This document shows, one piece after another, positions 1 to 64,000 of a stretch of 64,000 bases of DNA. Positions within the stretch are counted from its first letter, which is position 1. Every line of letters starts with the position of its first letter. The notes below the pieces were generated by a model. The model did not search any database. It was not told the origin of the DNA and saw only the letters and a program-made list of their open reading frames with translations. The translations under genes and the position numbers were made by a program. The stretch is from the NCBI GenBank assembly GCA_964016885.1, contig OZ024743.1, forward strand, positions 134,354,001-134,418,000. Direction: 5' to 3'. Source of the DNA: Eledone cirrhosa (Eukaryota).

Positions 1-815
1 AAACACCAAACACCAAGCACCAATCACCAAACACCAAGCACCAAGCGCCAAGCACCAGACACCAAGCACCAAGCACCAAACACCAAGCACCAAGCACCAA
101 ACACCAAGCACCAAGCACCAAGCACCAAGCACCAAGCACCAAACACCAAGCACCAAGCACCAAACAGCAAACACCAACCAGCAAACACCAAACACCAAAC
201 ACCAAACAGCAAACACCAAACAGCAAACACCAAACAGCAAACAGCAAACACCAAACACCAAGCACCAAGCACCAAGCACCAAGCACCAAGCACCAAACAC
301 CAAGCACCAAGCACCAAGCACCAAGCACCAAGCACCAAACACCAAGCACCAAGCACCAAACAGCATACACCAAGCACCAAACACCAAACACCAAGCACCA
401 AGCACCAAACACCAAACACCAAACACCAAGCACCAAGCCCCAAGCACCAAACACCAAGCACCAAGCACCAAACACCAAGCACGAAGCACCAAGCACCATG
501 CACCAAACACCAAGCACCAAGCACCAAACAGCAAACACCAAACAGCAAACACCAAACACCAAACACCAACCAGCAAACACCAAACACCAAACACCAAACA
601 GCAAACACCAAACAGCAAACACCAAACAGCAAACAGCAAACACCAAACACCAAACAGCAAATGCCAAAAAGCAAACGCCAAACCCCAAACGCCAAACAGC
701 AAATGCCAAACCCCAAACGCCAAACAGCAAACGCCAAGCGCCAAACGCCAAACACCAAGTGCCAAGCACCAAACACCAAACACCAAGCACCAAGCACCAA
801 GCACCAAACACCAAA

Positions 816-899
816 CAGCAAACGCCAAAAAGCAAACGCCAAACCCCATACGCCAAACAGCAAATGCCAAATCCCAAACGCCAAACAGCAAACGCCAAG
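816..899. repeat. Representative copy of an 84-bp (12-heptamer) divergent CpG-rich cassette
   Basis: Consensus CAGCAAA CGCCAAA AAGCAAA CGCCAAA CCCCATA CGCCAAA CAGCAAA TGCCAAA CCCCAAA CGCCAAA CAGCAAA CGCCAAG (this copy has TCCCAAA at unit 9). It recurs at about 1278, 1481, 2538, 2740, 4077, 4539, 5841, 6303 and many more sites up to ~24.8 kb, then at ~40197, 40400, 50330, 52460, 55745 and 57870. Confidence 0.93.
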
Positions 900-3800
900 C
901 ACCAAACACCAAACACCAAGCGCCAAGCACCAAACACCAAACACCAAGCACCAAGCACCAAACACCAAACACCAAGCACCAATCACCAAACACCAAGCAC
1001 CAAGCGCCAAGCACCAAACACCAAACACCTAGCACCAAGCACCAAGCACCAAACACCAAGTACCAAACACCAATCACCAAGCCCCAAGCACCAAACACCA
1101 AGCGCCAAGCACCAAACACCAAACACCAAGCACCAAGCACCCAGAACCAAGCACCAAGCACCAAACACCAAGCACCAAGCACCGAGCACCAAACACCAAG
1201 AACCAAGCACCAAGCTCTAAACACCAAACACCAAGCACCAAGCACCAAACACCAAACACCAAACACCAAACACCAAACAGCAAATGCCAAAAAGCAAACG
1301 CCAAACCCCAAACGCCAAACAGTAAATGCCAAACCCCAAACGCCAAACAGCAAACGCCAAGCGCCAAACGCCAAATACCAAGCGCCAAGCACCAAACACC
1401 AAACACCAAGCACCAAGCACCAAACACCAAACACCAAGCACCAAGTACCAAACACCAAACACCAAGCACCAAACACCAAACAGCAAACGCCAAAAAGCAA
1501 ACGCCAAACCCCATACGCCAAACAGCAAATGCCAAACCCCAAACGCCAAACAGCAAACGCCAAGCACCGAACACCAAACACCAAGAACCAAGCACCAAGC
1601 ACTAAACACCAAACACCAAGCACCAAGCACCAAACACCAAACACCAAGCACCAAGCACCGAGCACCAAACACCAAGAACCAAGCACCAAGCACTAAACAC
1701 CAAACACCAAGCACCAAGCACCAAACACCAAACACCAAGCACCAAACACCAAACAGCAAACGCCAAAAAGCAAACGCCAAACCCCATACGCCAAACAGCA
1801 AATGCCAAACTCCAAACGCCAAACAGCAAACGCCAGACACCAAACACCAAACACCAAGCGCCAAGCACCAAACACCAAACACCAAGCACCAAGCACCAAA
1901 CACCAAACACCAAGCACCAATCACCAAACACCAAGCACCAAGCAACAAACACCAAACACCAAGCACCAAGTACCAAACACCAAACACCAAGCACCAAACA
2001 CCAAACAGCAAACGCCAAAAAGCAAACGCCAAACCCCATACGCCAAACAGCAAATGCCAAACCCCAAACGCCAAACAGCAAACGCCAAGCACCGAACACC
2101 AAGCTCCAAGCACCAAACACCAAGCACCAAACACCAAACACCAAGCACCAAGCACCAAACACCAAGCACCAAGCGCCAAACACCAAACACCAAGCACCAA
2201 GCACCAAACACCAAGCACCAACCACCAAGCACCAAACACCAAGCACCAAGCACCAAGCACCAAGCACCAAACACCAAGCACCAAGCACCAAACAGCAAAC
2301 ACCAAGCACCAAACACCAAACACCAAGCACCAAGCAACAAACACCAAACACCAAGCACCAAACACCAAGCACCAAGCCCCAAGCACGAAACACCAAGCAC
2401 CAAGCACGAAACACCAAGCACCAAGCACCAAGCACCATGCACCAAACACCAAGCACCAAGCACCAAACAGCAAACACCAAACAGCAAACACCAAACAGCA
2501 AACACCAAACAGCAAACACCAAACAGCAAACACCAAACAGCAAACGCCAAAAAGCAAACGCCAAACTCCAAACGCCAAACAGCAAATGCCAAACCCAAAC
2601 GCCAAACAGCAAACGCCAAGCACAAAACACCAAACACCAAGCACCAAGCACCAAACACCAAACACCAAGCACCAAGCACCAAACACCAAACACCAAGCAC
2701 CAAGTACCAAACACCAAACACCAAGCACCAAACACCAAACAGCAAACGCAAAAAAGCAAACGCCAAACCCCATACGCCAAACAGAAAATGCCAAACCCCA
2801 AATGCCAAACGGCAAACGCCAAGCACCAAACACCAAACACCAAGCGCCAAGCACCAAACACCAAACACCAAGCACCAAGCACCAAACACCAAACACCAAG
2901 CACCAATCACCAAACACCAAACACCAAGCGCCAAACACCAAACACCAAACACCTATCACCAAGCACCAAGCACCAAACACCAAGCACCAAACACCAAGCA
3001 CCAAGCACCAAGCACCAAGCACCAAACACCAATCACCAAGCCCCAAGCACCAAACACCAAGCACCCAGCACCAAACACCAAACACCAAGCACCAAGCACC
3101 CAGAACAAAGCACCAAGCACCAGACACCAAACACCAAGCTCCAAGCACCAAACACCAAACACCAAGCACCAAGCACCAAGCACCAAACACCAAACACCAA
3201 GCACCAATCACCAAGCACCAAACACCAAGCACCAAACACCAAACACCAAACACCAAGCACCAAGCACCAAACACCAAACACCAAGCACCAAGCACCAAGC
3301 ACCAAGCACCAAACACCATACACCAAACAGCAAACGCCAAAAAGCAAACGCCAAACCCCATACGCCAAACAGCAAATGCCAAACCCCAAACGCCAAACAG
3401 CAAACGCCAAGCACCAAACACCAAACACCAAGCGCCAAGCACCAAACACCAAACACCAAGCACCAAGCACCAAACACCAAACACCAAGCACCAATCACCA
3501 AACACCAAGCACCAAGCGCCAAGCACCAGACACCAAGCACCAAGCACCAAACACCAAACACCAAGCACCAAGCACTAAACACCAAACACCAAGCACCAAG
3601 CACCAAGCACCAAGCACCAAGCACCAAACACCAAGCACCAAGCACCAAGCACCAAGCACCAAGCACCAAACACCAAGCACCAAGCACCGAACAGCAAACA
3701 CCAAGCACCAAACACCAAACACCAAGCACCAAGCACCAAACACCAAACACCAAACACCAAGCACCAAGCCCCAAGCACCAAACACCAAGCACCAAGCACC

Positions 3801-3919
3801 AAACACCAAGCACGAAGCACCAAGCACCATGCACCAAACAACAAGCACCAAGCACCAAACAGCAAACACCAAACACCAAGCACCAAGCACCAAACACCAA
3901 GCACGAAGCACCAAGCACC

Positions 3920-6900
3920 ATGCACCAAACAACAAGCACCAAGCACCAAACAGCAAACACCAAACAGCAAACACCAAACACCAAACACCAACCAGCAAAC
4001 ACCAAACACCAAACACCAAACAGCAAACACCAAACAGCAAACACCAAACAGCAAACACCAAACACCAAACACCAAACAGCAAACGCCAAAAAGCAAACGC
4101 CAAACCCCATACGCCAAACAGCAAATGCCAAACCCCAAACGCCAAACAGCAAACGCCAAGCACCGAACACCAAACACCAAGCGCCAAGCACCAAACACCA
4201 AACACCAAGCACCAAGCACCAAACACCAAACACCAAGCACCAATCACCAAACACCAAGCACCAAGCGCCAAGCACCAAACACCAAACACCTAGCACCAAG
4301 CACCAAGCACCAAACACCAAGTACCAAACACCAATCACCAAGCCCCAAGCACCAAACACCAAGCACCAAGCACCAAACACCAAACACCAAGCACCAAGCA
4401 CCCAGAACCAAGCACCAAGCACCAAACACCAAGCACCAAGCACCGAGCACCAAACACCAAGAACCAAGCACCAAGCACTAAACACCAAACACCAAGCACC
4501 AAGCACCAAACACCATACACCAAGCACCAAACACCAAACAGCAAACGCCAAAAAGCAAACGCCATACCCCATATGCCAAACAGCAAATGCCAAACTCCAA
4601 ACGCCAAACAGCAAACGCCAGGCACCAAACACCAAACACCAAGCGCCAAGCACCAAACACCAAACACCAAGCACCAAGCACCAAACACCAAACACCAAGC
4701 ACCAATCACCAAACACCAAGCACCAAGCGCCAAGCACCAAACACCAAACACCTAGCACCAAGCACCAAGCACCAAACACCAAGCACCAAACACCAATCAC
4801 CAAGCCCCAAGCACCAAACACCAAGCACCAAGCACCAAACACCAAACACCAAGCACCAAGCACCAAGGACCAAGCACCAAACACCAAGCACCAAGCACCG
4901 AGCACCAAACACCAAGAACCAAGCACCAAGCACTAAACACCAAACACCAAGCACCAAGCACCAAACACCAAACACCAAGCACCAAGTACAAAACTCCAAA
5001 CACCAAACACCAAGCACCAAGCACCAAATCCCAAGCACCAAACACCAAGCACCAATCACCAAACACCAAATACCAAGCACCAAGCACCAAACTCCAAAAA
5101 CCAAGCACCAAGCACCAAGCACCAAACACCAAACGCCAAACACCAAACACCAAGCACCAAGCACGAAACACCAAGCACCAAGCACCGAGCACCAAACACC
5201 AAGTACCAAGCACCAATCACCAAACACCAAGCACCAAGCACCAAACACCAAACACCAAGCACCAAGCACCAAGCATCAAGCACCAAGCACCAAACACCAA
5301 CCACCAAGCACCAAACACCAAACACAAAACAACAAGTACCAAGCACCAAACACCAAACACCAAACACCAAACACCAAGCACAAGACACCAAGCACCAAGC
5401 ACCAAGCACCAAGCACCAAAAACCAAGCACCAAGCTCCAAGCACCAAACACCAAGCACCAAACACCAAACACCAAGCACCAAGCAACAAACACCAAGCAC
5501 CAAGCACCAAGCACCAAGCACCAAACACCAAGCACCAACCACCAAACAGCAAACACCAAGCACCAAACACCAAACACCAAGCACCAAGCACCAAACACCA
5601 AACACCAAACACCAAGCACCAAGCCCCAAGCACCAAACACCAAGCACCAAGCACCAAACACCAAGCACGAAGCACCAAGCACCATGCACCAAACACCAAG
5701 CACCAAGCACCAAACAGCAAACACCAAACAGCAAACACCAAACACCAAACACCAACCAGCAAACACCAAACACCAAACACCAAACAGCAAACACCAAACA
5801 GCAAACACCAAACAGCAAACACCAAACACCAAACACCAAACAGCAAACGCCAAAAAGCAAACGCCAAACCCCATACGCCAAACAGCAAATGCCAAACCCC
5901 AAACGCCAAACAGCAAACGCCAAGCACCGAACACCAAACACCAAGCGCCAAGCACCAAACACCAAACACCAAGCACCAAGCACCAAACACCAAACACCAA
6001 GCACCAATCACCAAACACCAAGCACCAAGCGCCAAGCACCAAACACCAAACACCTAGCACCAAGCACCAAGCACCAAACACCAAGTACCAAACACCAATC
6101 ACCAAGCCCCAAGTACCAAACACCAAGCACCAAGCACCAAACACCAAACACCAAGCACCAAGCACCCAGAACCAAGCACCAAGCACCAAACACCAAGCAC
6201 CAAGCACCGAGCACCAAACACCAAGAACCAAGCACCAAGCACTAAACACCAAACACCAAGCACCAAGCACCAAACACCATACACCAAGCACCAAACACCA
6301 AACAGCAAACCCCAAAAAGCAAACGCCAAACCCCATATGCCAAACAGCAAATGCCAAACTCCAAACGCCAAACAGCAAACGCCAGGCACCAAACACCAAA
6401 CACCAAGCGCCAAGCACCAAACACCAAACACCAAGCACCAAGCACCAAACACCAAACACCAAGCACCAATCACCAAACACCAAGCACCAAGCGCCAAGCA
6501 CCAAACACCAAACACCTAGCACCAAGCACCAAGCACCAAACACCAAGCACCAAACACCAATCACCAAGCCCCAAGCACCAAACACCAAGCACCAAGCACC
6601 AAACACCAAACACCAAGCACCAAGCACCAAGGACCAAGCACCAAACACCAAGCACCAAGCACCGAGCACCAAACACCAAGAACCAAGCACCAAGCACTAA
6701 ACACCAAACACCAAGCACCAAGCACCAAACACCAAACACCAAGCACCAAGTACAAAACTCCAAACACCAAACACCAAGCACCAAGCACCAAATCCCAAGC
6801 ACCAAACACCAAGCACCAATCACCAAACACCAAACACCAAGCACCAAGCACCAAACTCCAAAAACCAAGCACCAAGCACCAAGCACCAAACACCAAACGC
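3920..6900. repeat. Direct repeat of ~1.2 kb at offset 1764 bp (252 heptamers): ~3920-5140 vs ~5684-6900
   Basis: Matching ORF pairs 4244..4474/6008..6238, 4478..4705/6242..6469 and starts 4587/6351. Shared rare markers CCCCATA-TGCCAAA, CGCCAGG, GACCAAG and TACAAAA-CTCCAAA. Confidence 0.85.
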
Positions 6901-9900
6901 CAAACACCAAACACCAAGTACCAAGCACCAAACACCAAGCACCAAGCGCCAAAGACCAAACACCAAGCACCAAGCACGAAACACCAAGCACCAAGCACCG
7001 AGCACCAAACACCAAGTACCAAGCACCAATCACCAAACACCAAGCACCAAGCACCAAACACCAAACACCAAGCACCAAGCACCAAGCATCAAGCACCAAG
7101 CACCAAACACCAACCACCAAGCACCAAACACCAAACACAAAACAACAAGTACCAAGCACCAAACACCAAACACCAAACACCAAACACCAAGCACCAAGCA
7201 CAAGACACCAAGCACCAAGCACCAAGCACCAAGCACCAAAAACCAAGCACCAAGCTCCAAGCACCAAACACCAAGCACCAAACACCAAACACCAAGCACC
7301 AAGCACCAAACACCAAGCACCAAGCGCCAAACACCAAACACCAAGCACCAAGCACCAAACACCAAGCACCAACCACCAAGCACCAAACACCAAGCACCAA
7401 GCACCAAGCACCAAGCACCAAGCACCAAACACCAAGCACCAAGCACCAAACAGCAAACACCAAGCACCAAACACCAAACACCAAGCACCAAGCAACAAAC
7501 ACCAAACACCAAGCACCAAACACCAAGCACCAAGCCCCAAGCACGAAACACCAAGCACCAAGCACGAAACACCAAGCACCAAGCACCAAGCACCATGCAC
7601 CAAACACCAAGCACCAAGCACCAAACAGCAAACACCAAACAGCAAACACCAAACAGCAAACACCAAACAGCAAACACCAAACAGCAAACACCAAACAGCA
7701 AACGCCAAAAAGCAAACGCCAAACTCCAAACGCCAAACAGCAAATGCCAAACCCAAACGCCAAACAGCAAACGCCAAGCACAAAACACCAAACACCAAGC
7801 GCCAAGCACCAAACACCAAACACCAAGCACCAAGCACCAAACACCAAACACCAAGCACCAAGTACCAAACACCAAACACCAAGCACCAAACACCAAACAG
7901 CAAACGCAAAAAAGCAAACGCCAAACCCCATACGCGAAACAGCAAATGCCAAACCCCAAATGCCAAACGGCAAACGCCAAGCACCAAACACCAAACACCA
8001 AGCGCCAAGCACCAAACACCAAACACCAAGCACCAAGCACCAAACACCAAACACCAAGCACCAATCACCAAACACCAAACACCAAGCGCCAAACACCAAA
8101 CACCAAACACCTATCACCAAGCACCAAGCACCAAACACCAAGCACCAAACACCAAGCACCAAGCACCAAGCACCAAGCACCAAACACCAATCACCAAGCC
8201 CCAAGCACCAAACACCAAGCACCCAGCACCAAACACCAAACACCAAGCACCAAGCACCCAGAACAAAGCACCAAGCACCAAACACCAAACACCAAGCTCC
8301 AAGCACCAAACACCAAACACCAAGCACCAAGCACCAAGCACCAAACACCATACACCAAACAGCAAACGCCAAAAAGCAAACGCCAAACCCCATACGCCAA
8401 ACAGCAAATGCCAAACCCCAAACGCCAAACAGCAAACGCCAAGCACCAAACACCAAACACCAAGCGCCAAGCAACAAACACCAAACACCAAGCACCAAGC
8501 ACCAAACACCAAACACCAAGCACCAATCACCAAACACCAAGCACCAAGCGCCAAGCACCAGACACCAAGCACCAAGCACCAAACACCAAACACCAAGCAC
8601 CAAGCACTAAACACCAAACACCAAGCACCAAGCACCAAGCACCAAGCACCAAGCACCAAACACCAAGCACCAAGCACCAAGCACCAAGCACCAAGCACCA
8701 AACACCAAGCACCAAGCACCAAACAGCAAACACCAAGCACCAAACACCAAACACCAAGCACCAAGCACCAAACACCAAACACCAAACACCAAGCACCAAG
8801 CCCCAAGCACCAAACACCAAGCACCAAGCACCAAACACCAAGCACGAAGCACCAAGCACCATGCACCAAACACCAAGCACCAAGCACCAAACAGCAAACA
8901 CCAAACAGCAAACACCAAACACCAAACACCAACCAGCAAACACCAAACACCAAACACCAAACAGCAAACACCAAACACCAAACACCAAACAGCAAACACC
9001 AAACACCAAACACCAAACCGCAAATGCCAAAAAGCAAACGCCAAACCCCAAACGCCAAACAGCAAATGCCAAACCCCAAACGCCAAACAGCAAACGCCAA
9101 GCGCCAAACGCCAAACACCTAGTGCCAAGCACCAAACACCAAACACCAAGCACCAAGCACCAAGCACCAAACACCAAACAGCAAACGCCAAAAAGCAAAC
9201 GCCAAACCCCATACGCCAAACAGCAAATGCCAAACCCCAAACGCAAAACAGCAAACGCCAAGCACCAAACACCAAACACCAAGCGCCAAGCACCAAACAC
9301 CAAACACCAAGCACCAAGCACCAAACACCAAACACCAAGCACCAATCACCAAACACCAAGCACCAAGCGCCAAGCACCAAACACCAAACACCTAGCACCA
9401 AGCACCAAGCACCAAACACCAAGTACCAAACACCAATCAGCAAGCCCCAAGCACCAAACACCAAGCGCCAAGCACCAAACACCAAACACCAAGCACCAAG
9501 CACCCAGAACCAAGCACCAAGCACCAAACACCAAGCACCAAGCACCGAGCACCAAACACCAAGAACCAAGCACCAAGCTCTAAACACCAAACACCAAGCA
9601 CCAAGCACCAAACACCAAACACCAAACACCAAACACCAAACAGCAAATGCCAAAAAGCAAACGCCAAACCCCAAACGCCAAACAGTAAATGCCAAACCCC
9701 AAACGCCAAACAGCAAACGCCAAGCGCCAAACGCCAAACACCAAGCGCCAAGCACCAAACACCAAACACCAAGCACCAAGCACCAAACACCAAACACCAA
9801 GCACCAAGTACCAAACACCAAACACCAAGCACCAAACACCAAACAGCAAACGCCAAAAAGCAAACGCCAAACCCCATACGCCAAACAGCAAATGCCAAAC

Positions 9901-12900
9901 CCCAAACGCCAAACAGCAAACGCCAAGCACCGAACACCAAACACCAAGAACCAAGCACCAAGCACTAAACACCAAACACCAAGCACCAAGCACCAAACAC
10001 CAAACACCAAGCACCAAGCACCGAGCACCAAACACCAAGAACCAAGTACCAAGCACTAAACACCAAACACCAAGCACCAAGCACCAAACACCAAACACCA
10101 AGCACCAAACACCAAACAGCAAACGCCAAAAAGCAAACGCCAAACCCCATACGCCAAACAGCAAATGCCAAACTCCAAACGCCAAACAGCAAACGCCAGG
10201 CACCAAACACCAAACACCAAGCGCCAAGCACCAAACACCAAACACCAAGCACCAAGCACCAAACACCAAACACCAAGCACCAATCACCGAACACCAAGCA
10301 CCAAGCGCCAAGCACCAAACACCAAACACCTAGCACCAAGCACCAAGCACCAAACACCAAGCACCAAACACCAATCACCAAGCCCCAAGCACCAAACACC
10401 AAGCACCAAGCACCAAACACCAAACACCAAGCACCAAGCACCAAGGACCAAGCACCAAACACCAAGCACCAAGCACCGAGCACCAAACACCAAGAACCAA
10501 GCACCAAGCACCAAACACCAAGCACCAAGCACCAAACACCAAGCACGAAGCACCAAGCACCATGCACCAAACACCAAGCACCAAGCACCAAACAGCAAAC
10601 ACCAAACAGCAAACACCAAACACCAAACACCAACCAGCAAACACCAAACACCAAACACCAAACAGCAAACACCAAACAGCAAACACCAAACAGCAAACAC
10701 CAAACACCAAACACCAAACAGCAAACGCCAAAAAGCAAACGCCAAACCCCATACGCCAAACAGCAAATGCCAAACCCCAAACGCCAAACAGCAAACGCCA
10801 AGCACCGAACACCAAACACCAAGCGCCAAGCACCAAACACCAAACACCAAGCACCAAGCACCAAACACCAAACACCAAGCACCAATCACCAAACACCAAG
10901 CACCAAGCGCCAAGCACCAAACACCAAACACCTAGCACCAAGCACCAAGCACCAAACACCAAGTACCAAACACCAATCACCAAGCCCCAAGCACCAAACA
11001 CCAAGCACCAAGCACCAAACACCAAACACCAAGCACCAAGCACCCAGAACCAAGCACCAAGCACCAAACACCAAGCACCAAGCACCGAGCACCAAACACC
11101 AAGAACCAAGCACCAAGCACTAAACACCAAACACCAAGCACCAAGCACCAAACACCATACACCAAGCACCAAACACCAAACAGCAAACCCCAAAAAGCAA
11201 ACGCCAAACCCCATATGCCAAACAGCAAATGCCAAACTCCAAACGCCAAACAGCAAACGCCAGGCACCAAACACCAAACACCAAGCGCCAAGCACCAAAC
11301 ACCAAACACCAAGCACCAAGCACCAAACACCAAACACCAAGCACCAATCACCAAACACCAAGCACCAAGCGCCAAGCACCAAACACCAAACACCTAGCAC
11401 CAAGCACCAAGCACCAAACACCAAGCACCAAACACCAATCACCAAGCCCCAAGCACCAAACACCAAGCACCAAGCACCAAACACCAAACACCAAGCACCA
11501 AGCACCAAGGACCAAGCACCAAACACCAAGCATCAAGCACCGAGCACCAAACACCAAGAACCAAGCACCAAGCACTAAACACCAAACACCAAGCACCAAG
11601 CACCAAACACCAAACACCAAGCACCAAGTACAAAACTCCAAACACCAAACACCAAGCACCAAGCACCAAATCCCAAGCACCAAACACCAAGCACCAATCA
11701 CCAAACACCAAACACCAAGCACCAAGCACCAAACTCCAAAAACCAAGCACCAAGCACCAAGCACCAAACACCAAACGCCAAACACCAAACACCAAGTACC
11801 AAGCACCAAACACCAAGCACCAAGCGCCAAAGACCAAACACCAAGCACCAAGCACGAAACACCAAGCACCAAGCACCGAGCACCAAACACCAAGTACCAA
11901 GCACCAATCACCAAACACCAAGCACCAAGCACCAAACACCAAACACCAAGCACCAAGCACCAAGCATCAAGCACCAAGCACCAAACACCAACCACCAAGC
12001 ACCAAACACCAAACACAAAACAACAAGTACCAAGCACCAAACACCAAACACCAAACACCAAACACCAAGCACCAAGCACAAGACACCAAGCACCAAGCAC
12101 CAAGCACCAAGCACCAAAAACCAAGCACCAAGCTCCAAGCACCAAACACCAAGCACCAAACACCAAACACCAAGCACCAAGCACCAAACACCAAGCACCA
12201 AGCGCCAAACACCAAACACCAAGCACCAAGCACCAAACACCAAGCACCAACCACCAAGCACCAAACACCAAGCACCAAGCACCAAGCACCAAGCACCAAG
12301 CACCAAACACCAAGCACCAAGCACCAAACAGCAAACACCAAGCACCAAACACCAAACACCAAGCACCAAGCAACAAACACCAAACACCAAGCACCAAACA
12401 CCAAGCACCAAGCCCCAAGCACGAAACACCAAGCACCAAGCACGAAACACCAAGCACCAAGCACCAAGCACCATGCACCAAACACCAAGCACCAAGCACC
12501 AAACAGCAAACACCAAACAGCAAACACCAAACAGCAAACACCAAACAGCAAACACCAAACAGCAAACACCAAACAGCAAACGCCAAAAAGCAAACGCCAA
12601 ACTCCAAACGCCAAACAGCAAATGCCAAACCCAAACGCCAAACAGCAAACGCCAAGCACAAAACACCAAACACCAAGCGCCAAGCACCAAACACCAAACA
12701 CCAAGCACCAAGCACCAAACACCAAACACCAAGCACCAAGTACCAAACACCAAACACCAAGCACCAAACACCAAACAGCAAACGCAAAAAAGCAAACGCC
12801 AAACCCCATACGCGAAACAGCAAATGCCAAACCCCAAATGCCAAACGGCAAACGCCAAGCACCAAACACCAAACACCAAGCGCCAAGCACCAAACACCAA

Positions 12901-15393
12901 ACACCAAGCACCAAGCACCAAACACCAAACACCAAGCACCAATCACCAAACACCAAACACCAAGCGCCAAACACCAAACACCAAACACCTATCACCAAGC
13001 ACCAAGCACCAAACACCAAGCACCAAACACCAAGCACCAAGCACCAAGCACCAAGCACCAAACACCAATCACCAAGCCCCAAGCACCAAACACCAAGCAC
13101 CCAGCACCAAACACCAAACACCAAGCACCAAGCACCCAGAACAAAGCACCAAGCACCAAACACCAAACACCAAGCTCCAAGCACCAAACACCAAACACCA
13201 AGCACCAAGCACCAAGCACCAAACACCATACACCAAACAGCAAACGCCAAAAAGCAAACGCCAAACCCCATACGCCAAACAGCAAATGCCAAACCCCAAA
13301 CGCCAAACAGCAAACGCCAAGCACCAAACACCAAACACCAAGCGCCAAGCAACAAACACCAAACACCAAGCACCAAGCACCAAACACCAAACACCAAGCA
13401 CCAATCACCAAACACCAAGCACCAAGCGCCAAGCACCAGACACCAAGCACCAAGCACCAAACACCAAACACCAAGCACCAAGCACTAAACACCAAACACC
13501 AAGCACCAAGCACCAAGCACCAAGCACCAAGCACCAAACACCAAGCACCAAGCACCAAGCACCAAGCACCAAGCACCAAACACCAAGCACCAAGCACCAA
13601 ACAGCAAACACCAAGCACCAAACACCAAACACCAAGCACCAAGCACCAAACACCAAACACCAAACACCAAGCACCAAGCCCCAAGCACCAAACACCAAGC
13701 ACCAAGCACCAAACACCAAGCACGAAGCACCAAGCACCATGCACCAAACACCAAGCACCAAGCACCAAACAGCAAACACCAAACAGCAAACACCAAACAC
13801 CAAACACCAACCAGCAAACACCAAACACCAAACACCAAACAGCAAACACCAAACACCAAACACCAAACAGCAAACACCAAACACCAAACACCAAACCGCA
13901 AATGCCAAAAAGCAAACGCCAAACCCCAAACGCCAAACAGCAAATGCCAAACCCCAAACGCCAAACAGCAAACGCCAAGCGCCAAACGCCAAACACCTAG
14001 TGCCAAGCACCAAACACCAAACACCAAACACCAAGCACCAAGCACCAAGCACCAAACACCAAACAGCAAACGCCAAAAAGCAAACGCCAAACCCCATACG
14101 CCAAACAGCAAATGCCAAACCCCAAACGCAAAACAGCAAACGCCAAGCACCAAACACCAAACACCAAGCGCCAAGCACCAAACACCAAACACCAAGCACC
14201 AAGCACCAAACACCAAACACCAAGCACCAATCACCAAACACCAAGCACCAAGCGCCAAGCACCAAACACCAAACACCTAGCACCAAGCACCAAGCACCAA
14301 ACACCAAGTACCAAACACCAATCAGCAAGCCCCAAGCACCAAACACCAAGCGCCAAGCACCAAACACCAAACACCAAGCACCAAGCACCCAGAACCAAGC
14401 ACCAAGCACCAAACACCAAGCACCAAGCACCGAGCACCAAACACCAAGAACCAAGCACCAAGCTCTAAACACCAAACACCAAGCACCAAGCACCAAACAC
14501 CAAACACCAAACACCAAACACCAAACAGCAAATGCCAAAAAGCAAACGCCAAACCCCAAACGCCAAACAGTAAATGCCAAACCCCAAACGCCAAACAGCA
14601 AACGCCAAGCGCCAAACGCCAAACACCAAGCGCCAAGCACCAAACACCAAACACCAAGCACCAAGCACCAAACACCAAACACCAAGCACCAAGTACCAAA
14701 CACCAAACACCAAGCACCAAACACCAAACAGCAAACGCCAAAAAGCAAACGCCAAACCCCATACGCCAAACAGCAAATGCCAAACCCCAAACGCCAAACA
14801 GCAAACGCCAAGCACCGAACACCAAACACCAAGAACCAAGCACCAAGCACTAAACACCAAACACCAAGCACCAAGCACCAAACACCAAACACCAAGCACC
14901 AAGCACCGAGCACCAAACACCAAGAACCAAGTACCAAGCACTAAACACCAAACACCAAGCACCAAGCACCAAACACCAAACACCAAGCACCAAACACCAA
15001 ACAGCAAACGCCAAAAAGCAAACGCCAAACCCCATACGCCAAACAGCAAATGCCAAACTCCAAACGCCAAACAGCAAACGCCAGGCACCAAACACCAAAC
15101 ACCAAGCGCCAAGCACCAAACACCAAACACCAAGCACCAAGCACCAAACACCAAACACCAAGCACCAATCACCAAACACCAAGCACCAAGCGCCAAGCAC
15201 CAAACACCAAACACCTAGCACCAAGCACCAAGCACCAAACACCAAGCACCAAACACCAATCACCAAGCCCCAAGCACCAAACACCAAGCACCAAGCACCA
15301 AACACCAAACACCAAGCACCAAGCACCAAGGACCAAGCACCAAACACCAAGCACCAAGCACCGAGCACCAAACACCAAGAACCAAGCACCAAG
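5631..15393. repeat. Near-identical tandem duplication, unit ~4878-4885 bp (copy 1 ~5631-10508, copy 2 ~10509-15393)
   Basis: Equal-length ORF pairs at constant offset 4878 (5684/10562, 6351..9122/11229..14000, 7089/11967, 8114/12992). The offset becomes 4885 after one extra heptamer near 14020 (9346/14231, 10056/14941). Confidence 0.93.
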
Positions 15394-32560: not shown

Positions 32561-32599
32561 AACACGAAACAGCAAACACCAAACAGCAAACACCAAACA

Positions 32600-34720: not shown

Positions 34721-34769
34721 CAAACACCAAGCACCAAGCGCCAAATACCAAACACCAAGCACCAAGCAC

Positions 34770-52200: not shown

Positions 52201-55200
52201 GCAACAAACACCAATCACCAAGCACCGAGCACTAAAAACCAAACATCTAGCACCAAGCACCAAGCACCAAACACCAAGCACCAAGCACCAAGCACCATGC
52301 ACCAAACACCAAGCACCAAGCACCAAACAGCAAACACCAAACAGCAAACACCAAACACCAAACACCAACCAGCAAACACCAAACACCAAACACCAAACAG
52401 CAAACACCAAACAGCAAACACCAAACAGCAAACACCAAACACCAAACACGAAACACCAAACGCCAAAAAGCAAACGCCAAACCCCAAACGCCAAACAGCA
52501 AATGCCAAACCCCAAACGCCAAACAGCAAACGCCAAGCGCCAAACACCAAAGACCAAGCGCCAAGCAACAAACACCAAACACCAAGCACCAAGTACCAAA
52601 CACCAAACACCAAGCACCAAACACCAAACAGCAAACGCCAAAAAGCAAACGCCAAACCCCAAACGCCAAACAGCAAACGCCAAGGACCAAACACCAAACA
52701 CCAAGCGCCAAGCACCAAATACCAAACACCAAGCACCAAGCACCAAACACCAAACACCAAGGACCAATCACCAAACACCAAGCACCAAGCGCCAAACACC
52801 AAACACCATACACCTAGCACCAAGCACCAAGCACCAAACACCAAGCACCAAGCCCCAAGCACCAAATAGCAAGCACCCAGCACCATACACCAAACACCAA
52901 GCACCAAGCACCCAGAACAAAGCACCAACCACCAAACACCAAACACCAAGCTCCAAGCACCAAACACCAAACACCAAGCACCAAGCACCAAGCACCAAGC
53001 ACCAAACACCAAACACCAAGCACCAAGCACCAAACACCAAGCACCAAGCGCCAAACACCAAACACCAAACACCTAGCACCAAGCACCAAGCACCGAACAC
53101 CAAGCACCAAACACCAAGCACCAAGCACCAAGCACCAAGCACCAAGCACCAAACACCAATCACCAAGCCCCAAGCACCCAGAACCAAGCACCAAGAACCA
53201 AACACCAAACACCAAGCACCAAGCACCAAACACCAAACACCAAGCACCAAGCACCAAGCACCAAGCACCAAACACCATACACCAAGCACCAAGCACCAAA
53301 CACCAAAAACCAATCACCAAGCACCAAAGAGCAAACACCAAGCCCCAAGCACCAAACACCAAACACCAAACAGCAAACACTAAACACCAAACACCAAACA
53401 GCAAACACCAAACAGCAAATAGCAAACACCAAACACCAACCAGAAAACACCAAACAGCAAACACCAAACAGCAAACGCCAAACAGCAAACACAAACACCA
53501 AACACCAAGCACCAACCACCAAGCACAAAACACCAACCACCAAGCGCCAAGCACCAAACACCAAACACCAAACACCAAACACCAAACACCAATCACCAGA
53601 CACCAGACACCAAACACCAAACAGCAAACACCAAACACCAAATAGCAAACACCAAACACCAAACACCATGCACCCAGAACCAAGCACCAAGCACCAAACA
53701 CCAAACACCAAGCACCAAGCACCAAACACCAAACACCAAGCACCAAGCACCAAGCACCAAGCACCAAACACCATACACCAAGCACCAAGCACCAACCACC
53801 AAAAACCAATCACCAAGCACCAAAGAGCAAACACCAAGCCCCAAGCACCAAACACCAAACACCAAACACCAAACAACAAACACTAATCACCAAACACCAA
53901 ACAGCAAACACCAAACACCAAATAGCAAACACCAAACACCAACCAGGAAACACCAAACAGCAAACACCAAACAGCAAACGCCAAACAGCAAACACAAACA
54001 CCAAACACCAAACACCAAGCACCAAGCACCAAGCACAAAACACCAAGCACCAAGCGCCAAGCAACAAACACCAAACACCAAACACCAAACAGCAAACACC
54101 AATCACCAAATACCAGACACCAAACACCAAACAGCAAACACCAAACACCAAACAGCAAACACCAAACACCAAACACCAAACAGCAAACACGAAACAGCAA
54201 ACACCAAACAGCAGACACCAAACAGCAAACACCAAACAGCAAACACCAAACACCAAACACCAAACACCAAGCACCAACCACCAAACACCAAGCACCAAGC
54301 AACAAACACCAATCACCAAGCACCGAGCACTAAAAACCAAACATCTAGCACCAAGCACCAAGCACCAAACACCAAGCACCAAGCACCAAGCACCAAACAC
54401 CAAGCACCAAAGACCAAGCCCCAAATACCAAGCACCAAGCACCAAACACCAATCACCAGGCACCAAGCACCAAACACCAAGAACCAAGCACCAAGCACTA
54501 AACACCAAATACCAAGCACCAAGCACCAAACACCAAACACCAAGCACCAAGTACCAAACTCCAAACACCAAACACCAAGCACCAAGCACCAAATCCCAAG
54601 CACCAAACACCAAGCACCAATCACCAAACACCAAACACCAAGCACCAAGCACCAAACACCAAAAACCAAGCACCAAGCACCAAGCACCAAACACCTAACG
54701 CCAAACACCAAACACCAAACACCAAGCACCAAGCACCAAACACCAAAAACCAAGCACCAAGCACCAAGCACCAAACACCTAACGCCAAACACCGAAAACC
54801 AAGTACCAAGCACCAAACACCAAGCACCAAGCGTCAAAGACCAAACACCTAGCACCAAGCACGAAACACCAAGTACCAGGCACCAATCACCAAACACCAA
54901 GAACCAAGCACCAAACACCAGACAGCAAGCACCAAGCACCAAACACCAAACTCCAAGCACCAAGCACCAAACACCAAGCACCAAGCGCCAAAGACCAAAC
55001 ACCAGGCACCAAGCACGAAACACCAAGCACCAAGCACCAAACACCAAGAACCAAGCACCAAACACCAAACACCAAGCACCAAGCACCAAACACCAAGCAC
55101 CAAGCGCCAAACACCAAACACCAAGCACCAAGCACCAAACACCAAGCACCAACCACCAAGCACCAAACACCAAGCACCAAGCACCAAACACCAAGCACCA

Positions 55201-58200
55201 ATCACCAAACAGCAAGCACCAAGCACCAAACACCAAACACCAAGCACCAAGCACCAAACACCAAGCACCAAGCACCAAACACCAAGCACCAAGCACCAAA
55301 CACCAAAAACCAATCACCAAGCACCAAAGAGCAAACACCAAGCCCCAAGCACCAAACACCAAACACCAAACACCAAATAGCAAACACTAAACACCAAACA
55401 CCAAACAGCAAACACAAAACACCAAATAGCAAATACCAAACAGCAAACACCAAACACCAAACAGCAAACACCAAACACCAACCAGGAAACACCAAAGACC
55501 AAGCACCAAACACCAAGCACCAAGCCCCAAGCACCAAACACCAAGCACTAAGCACCAAACACCAAGCACCAAGCACCAAGCACCATGCACCAAACACCAA
55601 GCACCAAGCACCAAACAGCAAACACCAAACAGCAAACACCAAACACCAAACACCAACCAGCAAACACCAAACACCAAACACCAAACAGCAAACACCAAAC
55701 AGCAAACACCAAACAGCAAACACCAAACACCAAATACGAAACACCAAACGCCAAAAAGCAAACGCCAAACCCCAAACGCCAAACAGCAAATGCCAAACCC
55801 CAAACGCCAAACAGCAAACGCCAAGCGCCAAACACCAAAGACCAAGCGCCAAGCAACAAACACCAAACACCAAGCACCAAGCACCAAACACCAAACACCA
55901 AGCACCAAGTACCAAACACCAAACACCAAGCACCAAACACCAAACAGCAAACGCCAAAAAGCAAACGCCAAACCCCAAACGCCAAACAGCAAACGCCAAG
56001 GACCAAACACCAAACACCAAGCGCCAAGCACCAAATACCAAACACCAAGCACCAAGCACCAAACACCAAACACCAAGGACCAATCACCAAACACCAAGCA
56101 CCAAGCGCCAAACAGCAAACACCATACACCTAGCACCAAGCACCAAGCACCAAACACCAAGCACCAAGCCCCAAGCACCAAATAGCAAGCACCCAGCACC
56201 ATACACCAAACACCAAGCACCAAGCACCCAGAACAAAGCACCAACCACCAAACACCAAACACCAAGCTCCAAGCACCAAACACCAAACACCAAGCACCAA
56301 GCACCAAGCACCAAGCACCAAACACCAAACACCAAGCACCAAGCACCAAACACCAAGCACCAAGCGCCAAACACCAAACACCAAACACCTAGCACCAAGC
56401 ACCAAGCACCGAACACCAAGCACCAAACACCAAGCACCAAGCACCAAGCACCAAGCACCAAGCACCAAACACCAATCACCAAGCCCCAAGCACCCAGAAC
56501 CAAGCACCAAGCACCAAACACCAAACACCAAGCACCAAGCACCAAACACCAAACACCAAGCACCAAGCACCAAGCACCAAGCACCAAACACCATACACCA
56601 AGCACCAAGCACCAAACACCAAAAACCAATCACCAAGCACCAAAGAGCAAACACCAAGCCCCAAGCACCAAACACCAAACACCAAACAGCAAACACTAAA
56701 CACCAAACACCAAACAGCAAACACCAAACAGCAAATAGCAAACACCAAACACCAACCAGGAAACACCAAACAGCAAACACCAAACAGCAAACGCCAAACA
56801 GCAAACACAAACACCAAACACCAAGCACCAAGCACCAAGCACAAAACACCAAGCACCAAGCGCCAAGCACCAAACACCAAACACCAAACACCAAACACCA
56901 AACACCAATCACCAGACACCAGACACCAAACACCAAACAGCAAACACCAAACACCAAACAGCAAACACCAAACACCAAACACCATGCACCCAGAACCAAG
57001 CACCAAGCACCAAACACCAAACACCAAGCACCAAGCACCAAACACCAAACACCAAGCACCAAGCACCAAGCACCAAGCACCAAACACCATACACCAAGCA
57101 CCAAGCACCAAACACCAAAAACCAATCACCAAGCACCAAAGAGCAAACACCAAGCCCCAAGCACCAAACACCAAACACCAAACACCAAACAACAAACACT
57201 AAACACCAAACACCAAACAGCAAACACCAAACACCAAATAGCAAACACCAAACACCAACCAGGAAACACCAAACAGCAAACACCAAACAGCAAACGCCAA
57301 ACAGCAAACACAAACACCAAACACCAAACACCAAGCACCAAGCACCAAGCACAAAACACCAAGCACCAAGCGCCAAGCACCAAACACCAAACACCAAACA
57401 CCAAACAGCAAACACCAATCACCAAATACCAGACACCAAACACCAAACAGCAAACACCAAACACCAGACAGCAAACACCAAACACCAAACACCAAACAGC
57501 AAACACGAAACAGCAAACACCAAACAGCAGACACCAAACAGCAAACACCAAACAGCAAACACCAAACACCAAACACCAAACACCAAGCACCAACCACCAA
57601 ACACCAAGCACCAAGCAACAAACACCAATCACCAAGCACCGAGCACTAAAAACCAAACATCTAGCACCAAGCACCAAGCACCAAACACCAAGCACCAAGC
57701 ACCAAGCACCATGCACCAAACACCAAGCACCAAGCACCAAACAGCAAACACCAAACAGCAAACACCAAACACCAAACACCAACCAGCAAACACCAAACAC
57801 CAAACACCAAACAGCAAACACCAAACAGCAAACACCAAACAGCAAACACCAAACACCAAACACGAAACACCAAACGCCAAAAAGCAAACGCCAAACCCCA
57901 AACGCCAAACAGCAAATGCCAAACCCCAAACGCCAAACAGCAAACGCCAAGCGCCAAACACCAAAGACCAAGCGCCAAGCAACAAACACCAAACACCAAG
58001 CACCAAGTACCAAACACCAAACACCAAGCACCAAACACCAAACAGCAAACGCCAAAAAGCAAACGCCAAACCCCAAACGCCAAACAGCAAACGCCAAGGA
58101 CCAAACACCAAACACCAAGCGCCAAGCACCAAATACCAAACACCAAGCACCAAGCACCAAACACCAAACACCAAGGACCAATCACCAAACACCAAGCACC

Positions 58201-60120
58201 AAGCGCCAAACACCAAACACCATACACCTAGCACCAAGCACCAAGCACCAAACACCAAGCACCAAGCCCCAAGCACCAAATAGCAAGCACCCAGCACCAT
58301 ACACCAAACACCAAGCACCAAGCACCCAGAACAAAGCACCAACCACCAAACACCAAACACCAAGCTCCAAGCACCAAACACCAAACACCAAGCACCAAGC
58401 ACCAAGCACCAAGCACCAAACACCAAACACCAAGCACCAAGCACCAAACACCAAGCACCAAGCGCCAAACACCAAACACCAAACACCTAGCACCAAGCAC
58501 CAAGCACCGAACACCAAGCACCAAACACCAAGCACCAAGCACCAAGCACCAAGCACCAAGCACCAAACACCAATCACCAAGCCCCAAGCACCCAGAACCA
58601 AGCACCAAGCACCAAACACCAAACACCAAGCACCAAGCACCAAACACCAAACACCAAGCACCAAGCACCAAGCACCAAGCACCAAACACCATACACCAAG
58701 CACCAAGCACCAAACACCAAAAACCAATCACCAAGCACCAAAGAGCAAACACCAAGCCGCAAGCACCAAACACCAAACACCAAACAGCAAACACTAAACA
58801 CCAAACACCAAACAGCAAACACCAAACAGCAAATAGCAAACACCAAACACCAACCAGGAAACACCAAACAGCAAACACCAAACAGCAAACGCCAAACAGC
58901 AAACACAAACACCAAACACCAAGCACCAAGCACCAAGCACAAAACACCAAGCACCAAGCGCCAAGCACCAAACACCAAACACCAAACACCAAACACCAAA
59001 CACCAATCACCAGACACCAGACACCAAACACCAAACAGCAAACACCAAACACCAAACAGCAAACACCAAACACCAAACACCATGCACCCAGAACCAAGCA
59101 CCAAGCACCAAACACCAAACACCAAGCACCAAGCACCAAACACCAAACACCAAGCACCAAGCACCAAGCACCAAGCACCAAACACCATACACCAAGCACC
59201 AAGCACCAAACACCAAAAACCAATCACCAAGCACCAAAGAGCAAACACCAAGCCCCAAGCACCAAACACCAAACACCAAACACCAAACAACAAACACTAA
59301 TCACCAAACACCAAACAGCAAACACCAAACACCAAATAGCAAACACCAAACACCAACCAGGAAACACCAAACAGCAAACACCAAACAGCAAACGCCAAAC
59401 AGCAAACACCAAACACCAAACACCAAACACCAAGCACCAAGCACCAAGCACAAAACACCAAGCACCAAGCGCCAAGCACCAAACACCAAACACCAAACAC
59501 CAAACAGCAAACACCAATCACCAAATACCAGACACCAAACACCAAACAGCAAACACCAAACACCAAACAGCAAACACCAAACACCAAACACCAAACAGCA
59601 AACACGAAACAGCAAACACCAAACAGCAGACACCAAACAGCAAACACCAAACAGCAAACACCAAACACCAAACACCAAACACCAAGCACCAACCACCAAA
59701 CACCAAGCACCAAGCAACAAACACCAATCACCAAGCACCGAGCACTAAAAACCAAACATCTAGCACCAAGCACCAAGCACCAAACACCAAGCACCAAGCA
59801 CCAAGCACCAAACACCAAGCACCAAAGACCAAGCCCCAAATACCAAGCACCAAGCACCAAACACCAATCACCAGGCACCAAGCACCAAACACCAAGAACC
59901 AAGCACCAAGCACTAAACACCAAATACCAAGCACCAAGCACCAAACACCAAACACCAAGCACCAAGTACCAAACTCCAAACACCAAACACCAAGCACCAA
60001 GCACCAAATCCCAAGCACCAAACACCAAGCACCAATCACCAAACACCAAACACCAAGCACCAAGCACCAAACACCAAAAACCAAGCACCAAGCACCAAGC
60101 ACCAAACACCTAACGCCAAA
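49290..60120. repeat. Near-identical tandem duplication, unit 5414 bp, each copy containing an internal ~2098-bp duplication
   Basis: ORF pairs at offset 5414: 49435/54849, 50171/55585, 52297/57711, 53668/59082. The offset is 5415 after ~59400 (54103/59518). Internal offset 2098: 50670..51215/52768..53313 and 56084/58182. Confidence 0.93.
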
Positions 60121-60575
60121 CACCAAACACCAAACACCAAGCACCAACCACCAAACACCAAGCACCAAGCAACAAACACCAATCACCAAGCACCGAGCAC
60201 TAAAAACCAAACATCTAGCACCAAGCACCAAGCACCAAACACCAAGCACCAAGCACCAAGCACCAAACACCAAGCACCAAAGACCAAGCCCCAAATACCA
60301 AGCACCAAGCACCAAACACCAATCACCAGGCACCAAGCACCAAACACCAAGAACCAAGCACCAAGCACTAAACACCAAATACCAAGCACCAAGCACCAAA
60401 CACCAAACACCAAGCACCAAGTACCAAACTCCAAACACCAAACACCAAGCACCAAGCACCAAATCCCAAGCACCAAACACCAAGCACCAATCACCAAACA
60501 CCAAACACCAAGCACCAAGCACCAAACACCAAAAACCAAGCACCAAGCACCAAGCACCAAACACCTAACGCCAAA
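59660..60575. repeat. Local tandem duplication of 455 bp (65 heptamers)
   Basis: CACCTAA-CGCCAAA at 60107 and 60562. CACCGAG-CACTAAA-AACCAAA-CATCTAG at ~59736 and ~60191. Confidence 0.87.
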
Positions 60576-63500
60576 CACCGAAAACCAAGTACCAAGCACC
60601 AAACACCAAGCACCAAGCGTCAAAGACCAAACACCTAGCACCAAGCACGAAACACCAAGCACCAAGCACCGAGCACCAAAGACCAAGTACCAGGCACCAA
60701 TCACCAAACACCAAGAACCAAGCACCAAACACCAGACAGCAAGCACCAAGCACCAAACACCAGACAGCAAGCACCAAGCACCAAACACCAAACTCCAAGC
60801 ACCAAGCACCAAGCACCAAGCGCCAAACACCAAACACCAAGCACCAAGCACCAAACACCAAGCACCAACCACCAAGCACCAAACACCAAGCACCAAGCAC
60901 CAAACACCAAGCACCAATCACCAAACAGCAAACACCAAGCACCAAACACCAAACACCAAGCACCAAGCACCAAACACCAAGCACCAAGCACCAAACACCA
61001 AGCACCAAGCACCAAACACCAAAAACCAATCACCAAGCACCAAAGAGCAAACACCAAGCCCCAAGCACCAAACACAAAACACCAAATACCAAATAGCAAA
61101 CACTAAACACCAAACACCAAACAGCGAACACCAAACACCAAACAGCAAACACCAAACACCAACCAGGAAACACCAAATACCAAGCACCAAACACCAAGCA
61201 CCAAGCCCCAAGCACCAAACACCAAGCACCAAGCACCAAACACCAAGCACCAAGCACCAAGCACCATGCACCAAACACCAAGCACCAAGCACCAAACAGC
61301 AAACACCAAACAGCAAACACCAAACACCAAACACCAACCAGCAAACACCAAACACCAAACACCAAACAGCAAACACCAAACAGCAAACACCAAACAGCAA
61401 ACACCAAACACCAAACACCAAACACCAAACGCCAAAAAGCAAACGCCAAACCCCAAACGTCAAACAGCAAACGCCAAGGACCAAACACCAAACACCAAGC
61501 GCCAAGCACCAAATACCAAACACCAAGCACCAAGCACCAAACACCAAACACCAAGGACCAATCACCTAACACCAAGCACCAAGCGCCAAACACCAAAAAC
61601 CAAACACCTAGCACCAAGCACCAAGCACCAAACACCAAGCACCAAGCCCCAAGCACCAAACAGCAAGCACCCAGCACCATACACCAAACACCAAGCACCA
61701 AGCACCCAGAACAAAGCACCAAGCACCAAACACCAAACACCAAGCTCCAAGCACCAAACACCAAACACCAAGCACCAAGCACCAAGCACCAAGCACCAAA
61801 CACCAAACACCAAGCACCAAGCACCAAACACCAAGCACCAAGCGCCAAACACCAAACACCAAACACCTAGCACCAAGCACCAAGCACTGAACACCAAGCA
61901 CCAAACACCAAGCACCAAGCACCAAGCACCAAGCACCAAGCACCAAACACCAATCACCAAGCCCCAAGCACCAAACACCAAGCACCAAGCACCAAACACC
62001 AAACACCAAGCACCAAGCACCCAGAACCAAGCACCAAGCACCAAACACCAAACACCAAGCACCAAGCACCAAACACCAAACACCAAGCACCAAGCACCAA
62101 GCACCAAGCACTAAACACCATACACCAAGCACCAAGCACCAATCACTAAACACTAAACACCAAGCACCAAGCACCAAACACAAACACCAAGCACCAAGTA
62201 CCAAACTCCAAACACCAAACACCAAGCACCAAGCACCAAATCCCAAGCACCAAACACCATTCACCATAAAACAAACACCAAACACCAAGCATGAAGCACC
62301 AAGCACCAAATACCAATCACCAAGCACCAAAGAGCAAACACCAAGCCCCAAGCACCAAACACCAAACACCAAACACCAAACAGCAAACACTAAACACCAA
62401 ACACCAAAGAGCAAACACCAAACACCAAATAGCAAACACCAAACACCAACAAGGAAACACCAAACAGCAAACACCAAACAGCAAACGCCAAACAGCAAAC
62501 ACAAACACCAAACACCAAACACCAAACACCAAACACCAAGCACCAAGCACAAAACACCAAGCACCAAGCGCCAAGCACCAAACACCAAACACCAAACACC
62601 AAACACCAAACACCAATCACCAAACACCAGACACCAAACACCAAACAGCAAACACCAAACACCAAACAGCAAACACCAAACACCAAACACCAAACAGCAA
62701 ACACCAAACAGCAAACACCAAACAGCAAACACCAAACAGCAAACAGCAAACACCAAACACCAAACACCAAGCACCAAGCAGCAAACACCAACACCAAGCA
62801 ACAAGCACCAATCACCAAGCACCAAGCACTAAACACCAAACACCTAGCACCAAGCACCAAGCACCAAACACCAAGCACCAAGCACCAAGCACCAAACACC
62901 AAGCACCAAAGACCAAGCCCCAAATACCAAGCACCAAGCACCAAACACCAATCACCAGGCACCAAGCACCAAACACCAAGAACCAAGCACCAAGCACTAA
63001 ACACCAAACACCTAGCACCAAGCACCAAACACCAAGAACCAAGCACCAAGCGCAAACACCGAACACCAAGCACCAAGCACCAAACACCAAGCACCAACCA
63101 CCAAGCACCAAACACCAAGCACCAAGCACCAGACACCAAGCACCAAGCACTAAGCACCAAGCACCAAAAACCAAGCACCAAGCTCCAAGCACCAAACACC
63201 AAGCACCAAACACCAAACACCAAGCACCAAGCACCAATCACCAAGCACCAAGCACCAAATACCAAGCACCAAGCAACAAGCACCAAACACCAAACACAAA
63301 ACACCAAACACCAAACACCAAGCACCAAACACCAAACACCAAGCACCAATCACCAAACACCAAACACCAAGCACCAAGCACCAAACACCAAGCACCAAGC
63401 ACCAAAGAGAAAAAAACCAAGCACCAAGCATCAAACACCAAACACCAAACACCACACAGCAAACAGCAAACAGCAAACACCAAACAGCAAACACCAAATA

Positions 63501-64000
63501 GCAAACACCAAACAGCAAACACCAAACACCAAACAGCAAACACTAAACACCAAACACCAAGCACCAAGCACCAAGCACCAAACAACAAGCACCAAGCACC
63601 AAGCACCAAGCACCAAACACCAAACACCAATCGCCAAACACCAAACACCAAGCATCAAGCACCAAACACCAAACACCAAGCACCAAGCACCAAGCACCAA
63701 ACACAAAACACCAAGTACCAAGCACCTACCACAAAACACCAAACACCAAACACCAAGCACCAGACACCAAGCACCAAGCACTAAGCACCAAGCACCAAAA
63801 ACCAAGCACCAAGCTCCAAGCACCAAACACCAAGCACCAAGCACCAAGCACCAAACTCCAAGCACCAAGCACCAAGCACCAAACACAAAGCACCAAGCAC
63901 CAACCACCAAGCAGCAAGCACCAAGCACCAAGCACCAAACACCAAGCACCAAGCACCAAACACCAAACACCAAGCACCAATCACCAAACACCAAACACCA

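Follow-up and report, generated by a model that had tools for sequence, protein, structure and literature searches.

Among the satellites with which a very large array of a short monomer may be compared, human HSat2 and HSat3, DYZ1 included, form arrays of 12.7–27.6 Mb on few chromosomes, as described in the available parts of two reports (10.1101/2021.07.12.452052; 10.1101/2022.12.01.518724). In Drosophila virilis, satellites with a 7-bp monomer and single-base variants form megabase arrays (10.1101/693077, excerpts), and in Tribolium madens and T. freemani macro-dyad satellites with long monomers and dyads of up to 75 kb carry thousands of inversion sites on all or nearly all chromosomes (accessible text of PMC13081366 and 10.1101/2024.12.02.626372). 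Here we describe a satellite of the heptamer CACCAAR in Eledone cirrhosa, recognized in a stretch of 64,000 bp (OZ024743.1, hereafter chromosome C4, positions 134,354,001–134,418,000; the whole stretch is called the window, and coordinates 1..64000 refer to it). It is a real and apparently undescribed single-locus megasatellite, a block of 14.6 Mb, which we take, with slightly better than even confidence and from sequence evidence, to be pericentromeric heterochromatin of C4 and not a shared centromere repeat.

Both edges of the block were read (C4:128,822,870–143,422,336), and megabase sampling of C4 detected the satellite in 15 of 15 samples between 129 and 143 Mb and in none of five outside. 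The initial annotation, made from the window alone, had proposed a CACCAAR-type satellite that fills the 64 kb and continues beyond them. Both points were borne out: the window amounts to 0.4% of the block, and the heptamer to ~0.5% of the 2,996-Mb (3.0 Gb) assembly. Reading covered 811 kb of the block (5.6%), the remainder being interpolated from orientation samples, and these 811 kb contained no insertion longer than 100 bp apart from two inclusions of a satellite with a 25/27-bp unit. The block is interstitial on the 378.8-Mb chromosome, with its centre at 36% of the length (arm ratio 1.78). Genome-wide, 415,474 matches to (CACCAAR)5 were observed, compared with about 445,000 expected from the blocks that were mapped, so that no further large array can be accommodated; the plus-strand share was 29.6% against a predicted 31%. 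All but two of the 78 genome-wide occurrences of (CACCAAG)8 fall in the block, the two others at C4:205.37 Mb, and the listing of (CACCAAR)5 matches begins on chromosome C2, so that C1 is apparently without any if contig order is assumed. Two outliers were located, 71 kb on C2 and 40–90 kb at C4:205.36 Mb. The heptamer is thus essentially a single-locus satellite and not pan-centromeric, and the proposal that it is a candidate centromere is weakened as regards a genome-wide role, since its copies lie almost wholly at one locus.

The 25/27-bp satellite has a wider distribution: a 41-mer matches it 54,774 times, and density puts its total in the genome at an estimated ~17 Mb. It occurs at 57% of C1 (251.19–252.0+ Mb), at 60% of C2 (248.0–251.0 Mb) and at C4:205.5–206.0 Mb (54% of C4). 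Inside the C4 block it is present within 140.04–140.14 Mb, behind an AT-rich spacer, and directly after a 200-N gap at C4:137,411,371; on C2 it surrounds the heptamer block, with end overlaps of 3 and 5 bases. A common transition junction between the two satellites recurs at C4:137.412, C4:140.137 and C2:250.932 Mb; its heptamer flanks, compared over about 1,370–1,400 bp, show 2–5 mismatches. Of four pieces of the C2 heptamer block, two have 43–45% of their 70-mers in common with C4 samples and the others 7% and 20%. The sharing is mostly with loci outside the inverted islands described below, and the C2 block likely came from C4.

The reading of the block as near-centromeric heterochromatin is supported by the insertion-poor array, by the presence of the 25/27-bp satellite near the middle of C1 and C2 (57% and 60% of their lengths), and by the arm ratio, which fits the mainly meta- and submetacentric karyotypes of octopods (PMC5646656, available text). 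The 25/27-bp satellite, itself a candidate only, is a stronger one than the heptamer for a centromere repeat common to several chromosomes. Three points weigh against this assignment. Much of the ~17 Mb of that satellite has no location, the sites seen being on C1, C2 and C4 with C3 and the small chromosomes left out; its second site on C4, at 205.5–206.0 Mb, could be the true centromere; and with 5.6% of the block read, paired strand switches or inclusions may have been missed.

It is possible, if doubtful, that the heptamer is instead the CENP-A-bearing core of the C4 centromere, having displaced or engulfed the 25/27-bp repeat. Such a core would agree with an array that is very large, young and insertion-poor, and that is interleaved through conserved junctions with a multi-chromosome satellite, as are the putative centromeres of Tribolium (PMC13081366, accessible text); the centromere-proximal satellites of D. 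virilis likewise have short monomers (10.1101/693077, excerpts). However, no other chromosome carries a large heptamer array, and human HSat2/3, to which the block comes closest in structure, is a pericentromeric satellite in the available part of 10.1101/2021.07.12.452052.

It also seems unlikely that the block is an intercalary knob of heterochromatin with no relation to the centromere. The centromere would then lie elsewhere on C4, for example in the satellite cluster at 205–210 Mb, where the 25/27-bp satellite occupies a relative position (54%) like those on C1 and C2, and where other tandem arrays, with 37-, 59- and 55-bp units, occur at 206.5, 207 and 210 Mb. The piece that runs from C4:205,362,691 to 206.0+ Mb, however, starts at a 200-N gap, shares 83% of its 60-mers with the local heptamer subfamily running up to the 137.41-Mb gap, and matches that end in 22 stretches with 0–10 mismatches each. 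In this piece heptamer is followed by spacer and then by 25/27-bp satellite, in which the contig beyond the 137.41-Mb gap also begins. Because of the shared subfamily and this order leading into the 25/27-bp satellite, the piece likely belongs in the 137.41-Mb gap and would be mis-scaffolded. The AT-rich spacer bears on the same question: recorded from C4:140,036,379 on, it exceeds 5.6 kb, and it has copies at C4:205.0 and 205.45 Mb that are 99.2–100% identical. The copy at 205.0 Mb, 99.6% identical to the in-array spacer, stands to the left of the scaffold gap, and it argues, contrary to misplacement, for a true neighbourhood at 205 Mb. The spacer contains internal opposed arms of about 10-bp repeats and resembles a foldback element.

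Within the window, Tandem Repeats Finder (TRF) returned a single array from 1 to 64000 (period 7, 9,147 copies, 84% matches), and a monomer parse gave 9,148 monomers, among which 34 internal ones depart from 7 bp through indels. CACCAAG (33.4%) and CACCAAA (32.3%) together account for 66%, followed by CAGCAAA (5.6%) and CGCCAAA (3.1%). The strands are strongly asymmetric, with a T content of 1.6% and a GC skew of about -0.63. The initial annotation had listed nested higher-order repeats (HORs) with periods of 14/28, 84, 203/462, ~1500–2700 and 4878/5414 bp, and this claim proved overstated. When monomer matches at a given lag were compared with 30 monomer shuffles, only the 28-bp period was clearly enriched (0.353 vs 0.220), as a rhythm of the two main monomers. 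The 14-bp lag was depleted rather than enriched (0.173 vs 0.222) and the 84-bp lag, with one tandem pair, was at background (0.225 vs 0.222), so neither is retained as a period; lags of 203 bp (0.246) and 455/462 bp (0.229/0.234) were weak and local against ~0.22 in shuffles, and spacings of 1.6–2.7 kb are real yet patchy. No lag above 28 bp in the window exceeded a monomer match of 0.28, and a fixed multi-monomer HOR of the alpha-satellite type was thus not found. The spacings of 4878 and 5414 bp exist, each as one two-copy tandem duplication (Table 1), and so do not constitute a higher-order period.

Table 1. Features of the window, in window coordinates.
Feature	Position	Strand	Basis or remark
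(CACCAAR)n array without interruption	1..64000	+	TRF, monomer parse
Zone rich in the island-specific variant cassette (CGCCAAA/AAGCAAA monomers)	657..24798	+	33 of the 39 cassette copies in the window
Tandem duplication, offset 4878/4885 bp, two copies	5626..15396 (5626–10511 to 10504–15396)	+	99.9% identical
Local duplication, offset 2673 bp	16227..20929	+	2030 bp at 99.7%
Local duplication, offset 2246 bp	35803..39271	+	1223 bp at 99.7%
Tandem duplication, offset 5414/5415 bp, two copies	49292..60161 (49292–54746 to 54706–60161)	+	99.8% identical

Near-identical duplicates of at least 500 bp cover 73.5% of the window. The rightmost duplication contains older 2098-bp duplicates, and the divergence values of the duplications all overlap, so that they give no order by divergence. 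The hierarchy seen in the window is a layered record of local duplications on a 28-bp rhythm, and no HOR runs through the array. The comparison with HSat2/3 made in the initial annotation was apt in that simple-repeat ancestry, scale and restriction to few chromosomes are common to both, and a nesting of kilobase repeats may be, as far as the available text of the human reports goes. In contrast to HSat2/3, the monomer is CACCAAR and not CATTC, and the array does not derive from (CATTC)n (10.1101/2021.07.12.452052, in part); its monomers remain near consensus (66% canonical) in an invertebrate host, and its kilobase units are one-off, two-copy and local, whereas a 3.6-kb unit dominates in HSat2/3. 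The heptamer resembles the D. virilis satellites in monomer length, single-base variants and megabase arrays. By inspection, ACAAACT matches CACCAAR at only 5 of 7 positions in the best rotation, which places the heptamer outside that family, and the D. virilis satellites exceed 40% of their genome as against ~0.5% here (10.1101/693077, excerpts). Repeats like the short tandemly repeated repetitive (STRR) sequences of bacteria also share the motif: at least 120 stretches of prokaryotic DNA contain (CACCAAR)6, among them some from Tolypothrix and Nostoc, with 1–3 matches of 42 bp per locus, some of them at contig ends, among the matches listed. The present array is neither short nor prokaryotic, the host being a 3.0-Gb animal with molluscan hemocyanin genes, and sharing of the motif is likely convergent.

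On the megabase scale, the block consists of 30 strand blocks (4.7 Mb plus and 9.8 Mb minus in total), parted by 27 sequence-contiguous joins, the 200-N gap and one 100-kb inclusion. The joins are largely copies of one another, since 24 of the 27 represent four joins, J1 (ten copies), J2 (ten), J3 (two) and J4 (two), and three are unique. J2 and J1 bound inverted islands of 105–256 kb; nine islands run from J2 to J1, one ends at a unique join, and an extra J1 at 142.89 Mb is without J2. Between the islands, background strand blocks extend up to 1.3 Mb. The window lies wholly within a 105-kb island delimited by J2 at C4:134,326,983 (27.0 kb before its start) and J1 at C4:134,431,846 (13.8 kb after its end). 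The variant cassette of Table 1 is present in 5–8 copies in each of ten out of ten island loci and in none of 13 background megabase samples, and the 99%-identical matches of a 301-bp window piece fall, among the matches listed, in islands.

Cleanly aligned join flanks differ by ~0.2–1.3%, as against 11.3% for 29 random pairs, and pairs with local rearrangements by up to about 13%. The same arm in the next copy of a join shares 46–78% of its 60-mers in 16 of 18 comparisons. An alignment of J2 (1,176 columns; mean distance 1.0%) contains 58 singleton sites and one shared site. These sequence comparisons suggest that the roughly ten islands are copies of one inverted segment, ~1% apart, and the star-like tree at J2, the better-aligned join, suggests that they arose in a burst. 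This adds a megabase-scale level, not visible within a 64-kb window, to the hierarchy of the initial annotation. A uniform burst of this kind is opposed by the J1 alignment (403 columns), which is less star-like, with 8 singleton and 7 shared sites, six of the shared ones in one 15-column cluster, and by the irregular unit, forward J2 copies being spaced 0.44–1.85 Mb apart. J1 and J2 may be reciprocal ends of one inversion; a search of 690 kb did not turn up a parent of the J2 island arm.

Zero-spacer palindromic joins look like fold-back artefacts, and J1 comprises nine exact joins of this type and a tenth with one substitution, all copies of one join. Together with the gap in the block and the likely misplaced piece, this could be taken to mean that the block is an assembly artefact, produced by inflated copies or fold-back reads, which we regard as very improbable. 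The mirror of J1 is perfect over just 20 bp in nine of nine exact copies, like arms of these copies are identical over 49–567 and 82–712 bases, the two arms of a join are different subfamilies, and every J2 copy has private substitutions. Moreover, in a search of sequencing runs, three runs of one sample, maybe the source sample and so not independent, contained 76–78% of the sampled words. Two runs labelled as other organisms contained 24–26%, and a further 15 runs 7–19%; the latter, mostly marine metagenomes and six of them RNA, likely reflect short bacterial heptamer repeats and are uninformative on distribution or expression. Among the runs listed, no RNA run came from the organism that carries the array.

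A telomeric or subtelomeric repeat, or a giant protein-coding repeat, as the strand asymmetry and long stop-free frames might have indicated, can be dismissed almost entirely: the block occupies 128.8–143.4 of 378.8 Mb, TTAGGG-type repeats open three of 16 sampled contig starts (C7, C9 and C10), the longest stop-free frame in the window (1,370 codons) is equalled or exceeded in 55 of 100 monomer shuffles and is long because the T content is so low, and each plus-strand frame contains 64–104 stops. The chromosome-end array suggested in the initial annotation is refuted by the same interstitial position and the TTAGGG-type repeats at chromosome starts.

The sequences of the joins give some indication of their origin. 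Six joins, J4 left out, were compared with parental sequence, and the overlaps comprised 2 bases in three of them (J1, J3 and that at 134.467 Mb), 1–2 in J2, 1 in one and none in one, where ~2.8% per random join is estimated (P=0.0004). GC is the commonest dinucleotide common to both strands (0.0061 of a total of 0.0094). These observations suggest that the joins arose by microhomology-assisted repair or by template switching. Breakage-fusion-bridge or fold-back cycles were rejected as their origin because the arms of any one join are not mirror copies, having no more than 2.2% of their 60-mers in common. An 80-base stretch at J1 is predicted to fold at -44.4 kcal/mol, compared with -0.8 for a plain window stretch; this is no evidence for a functional hairpin, since any opposite-strand join of the heptamer would fold in this manner, and a hairpin function was not retained.

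We propose that the array grew by copying at three scales. An old break would have been repaired at a 1–2-base overlap, mostly GC, flipping a segment; a 1–2-Mb unit with this flip would then have undergone a brief burst of roughly tenfold amplification, through unequal exchange or break-induced copying. Subsequent inversions and kilobase duplications would have reshuffled the block, and a 71-kb piece would have been exported to C2, likely via the 25/27-bp satellite. The joins would be passengers of this copying. Unequal exchange or break-induced copying is the probable route of amplification; in human Yq12, iterative tandem duplications of up to 5 Mb are ascribed to unequal exchange (10.1101/2022.12.01.518724, available part). 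We consider rolling-circle copying of a large circle improbable, although T. freemani satellites have been found on extrachromosomal circles (10.1101/2024.12.02.626372, available part). A bolder and rather unlikely version would be a centromere turnover on C4, in which the chromosome-specific heptamer would have been amplified once in megabase units, would have engulfed the same 25/27-bp repeat that marks the centromeres of the other large chromosomes, and would by now carry CENP-A on C4 and have started to invade the C2 array via the shared junction.

With regard to Tribolium, two characteristics of its macro-dyad satellites are found in the block, namely conserved inversion sites in many copies (the four recurrent joins) and the intermingling of two satellites whose transition junctions are conserved, even from one chromosome to another. 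In the available text, the Tribolium satellites are also putatively (peri)centromeric. Unlike them, the heptamer is confined to essentially one chromosome, and its inverted subarrays are far from symmetric in strand total. Furthermore, there are only about ten copies, as islands of 105–256 kb at a spacing of 0.4–1.9 Mb, with arms of different subfamilies and a 7-bp monomer. The heptamer block belongs to neither the HSat2/3 family, as judged by its monomer, nor that of Tribolium, as judged by chromosomal distribution and symmetry.

Several features of the surroundings were recorded. The left block edge cuts a tandem 1.47-kb tRNA-Arg(TCG) unit (C4:128.820–128.823 Mb), which is accompanied by decayed extra tRNA copies, and 120 kb outward from there is a tRNA-Lys gene. 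In fission yeast, tRNA genes act as barriers at centromeres; the same role for the edge tRNA-Arg units is speculation. Other tandem arrays near large satellite blocks have units of 28 bp (C4:127.0 Mb), 227 bp (C2:245.0 Mb) and 16 bp (C2:255.0 Mb). A sample at C4:145.0 Mb contains, in its positions 3–2998, a pair of long open frames, of which the second has an Exo_endo_phos domain (E 6.7e-15), and is likely a young retrotransposon of the type lacking long terminal repeats (non-LTR). The four chromosomes C1–C4 (443, 416, 379 and 379 Mb) hold 54% of the assembly and are possibly fusion products; among the 17 contigs sized, the next largest, C5, has 135 Mb, C27 22 Mb and C30 57 kb. The molluscan hemocyanin family (PF14830) has 39 matches in the genome, with apparently three copies of multi-unit genes at C1:173.7–173.9 Mb, an opposed pair at C26:21.9–22.0 Mb and two unit matches at C27:61–67 kb. 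For one functional unit, the bit scores were 854.9 with 1js8_A, 738.3 with 4yd9_C and 513.8 with the best domain of 3j32_A, which we take to be octopus, squid and gastropod hemocyanin entries, respectively; an octopod host is thus likely from these genes as well.

In the literature searched, supplements not covered, no description of the heptamer was found, and cephalopod genome papers may list tandem repeats in such supplements; nor did we find a paper combining cephalopod, centromere, CENP-A and satellite, and the available text of PMC8122249 and PMC12682272 contains nothing on the heptamer. The view of the initial annotation that the satellite is undescribed stands as far as this search of the literature reaches, Dfam and Repbase lying outside it. 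If there were no link to the centromere, the block would simply add another large satellite to a genome already rich in them. Macro-dyad satellites are documented only in Tribolium according to the accessible part of PMC13081366; a similar layout is now found in a mollusc, where passive copying would account for the conserved inversion sites with no need of a hairpin function. The copied joins serve as natural barcodes for the growth of a 14.6-Mb array and point to burst amplification of megabase units. For the octopods, heptamer and 25/27-bp satellite can both serve as probes, which gives a clear either/or test for the position of a centromere.

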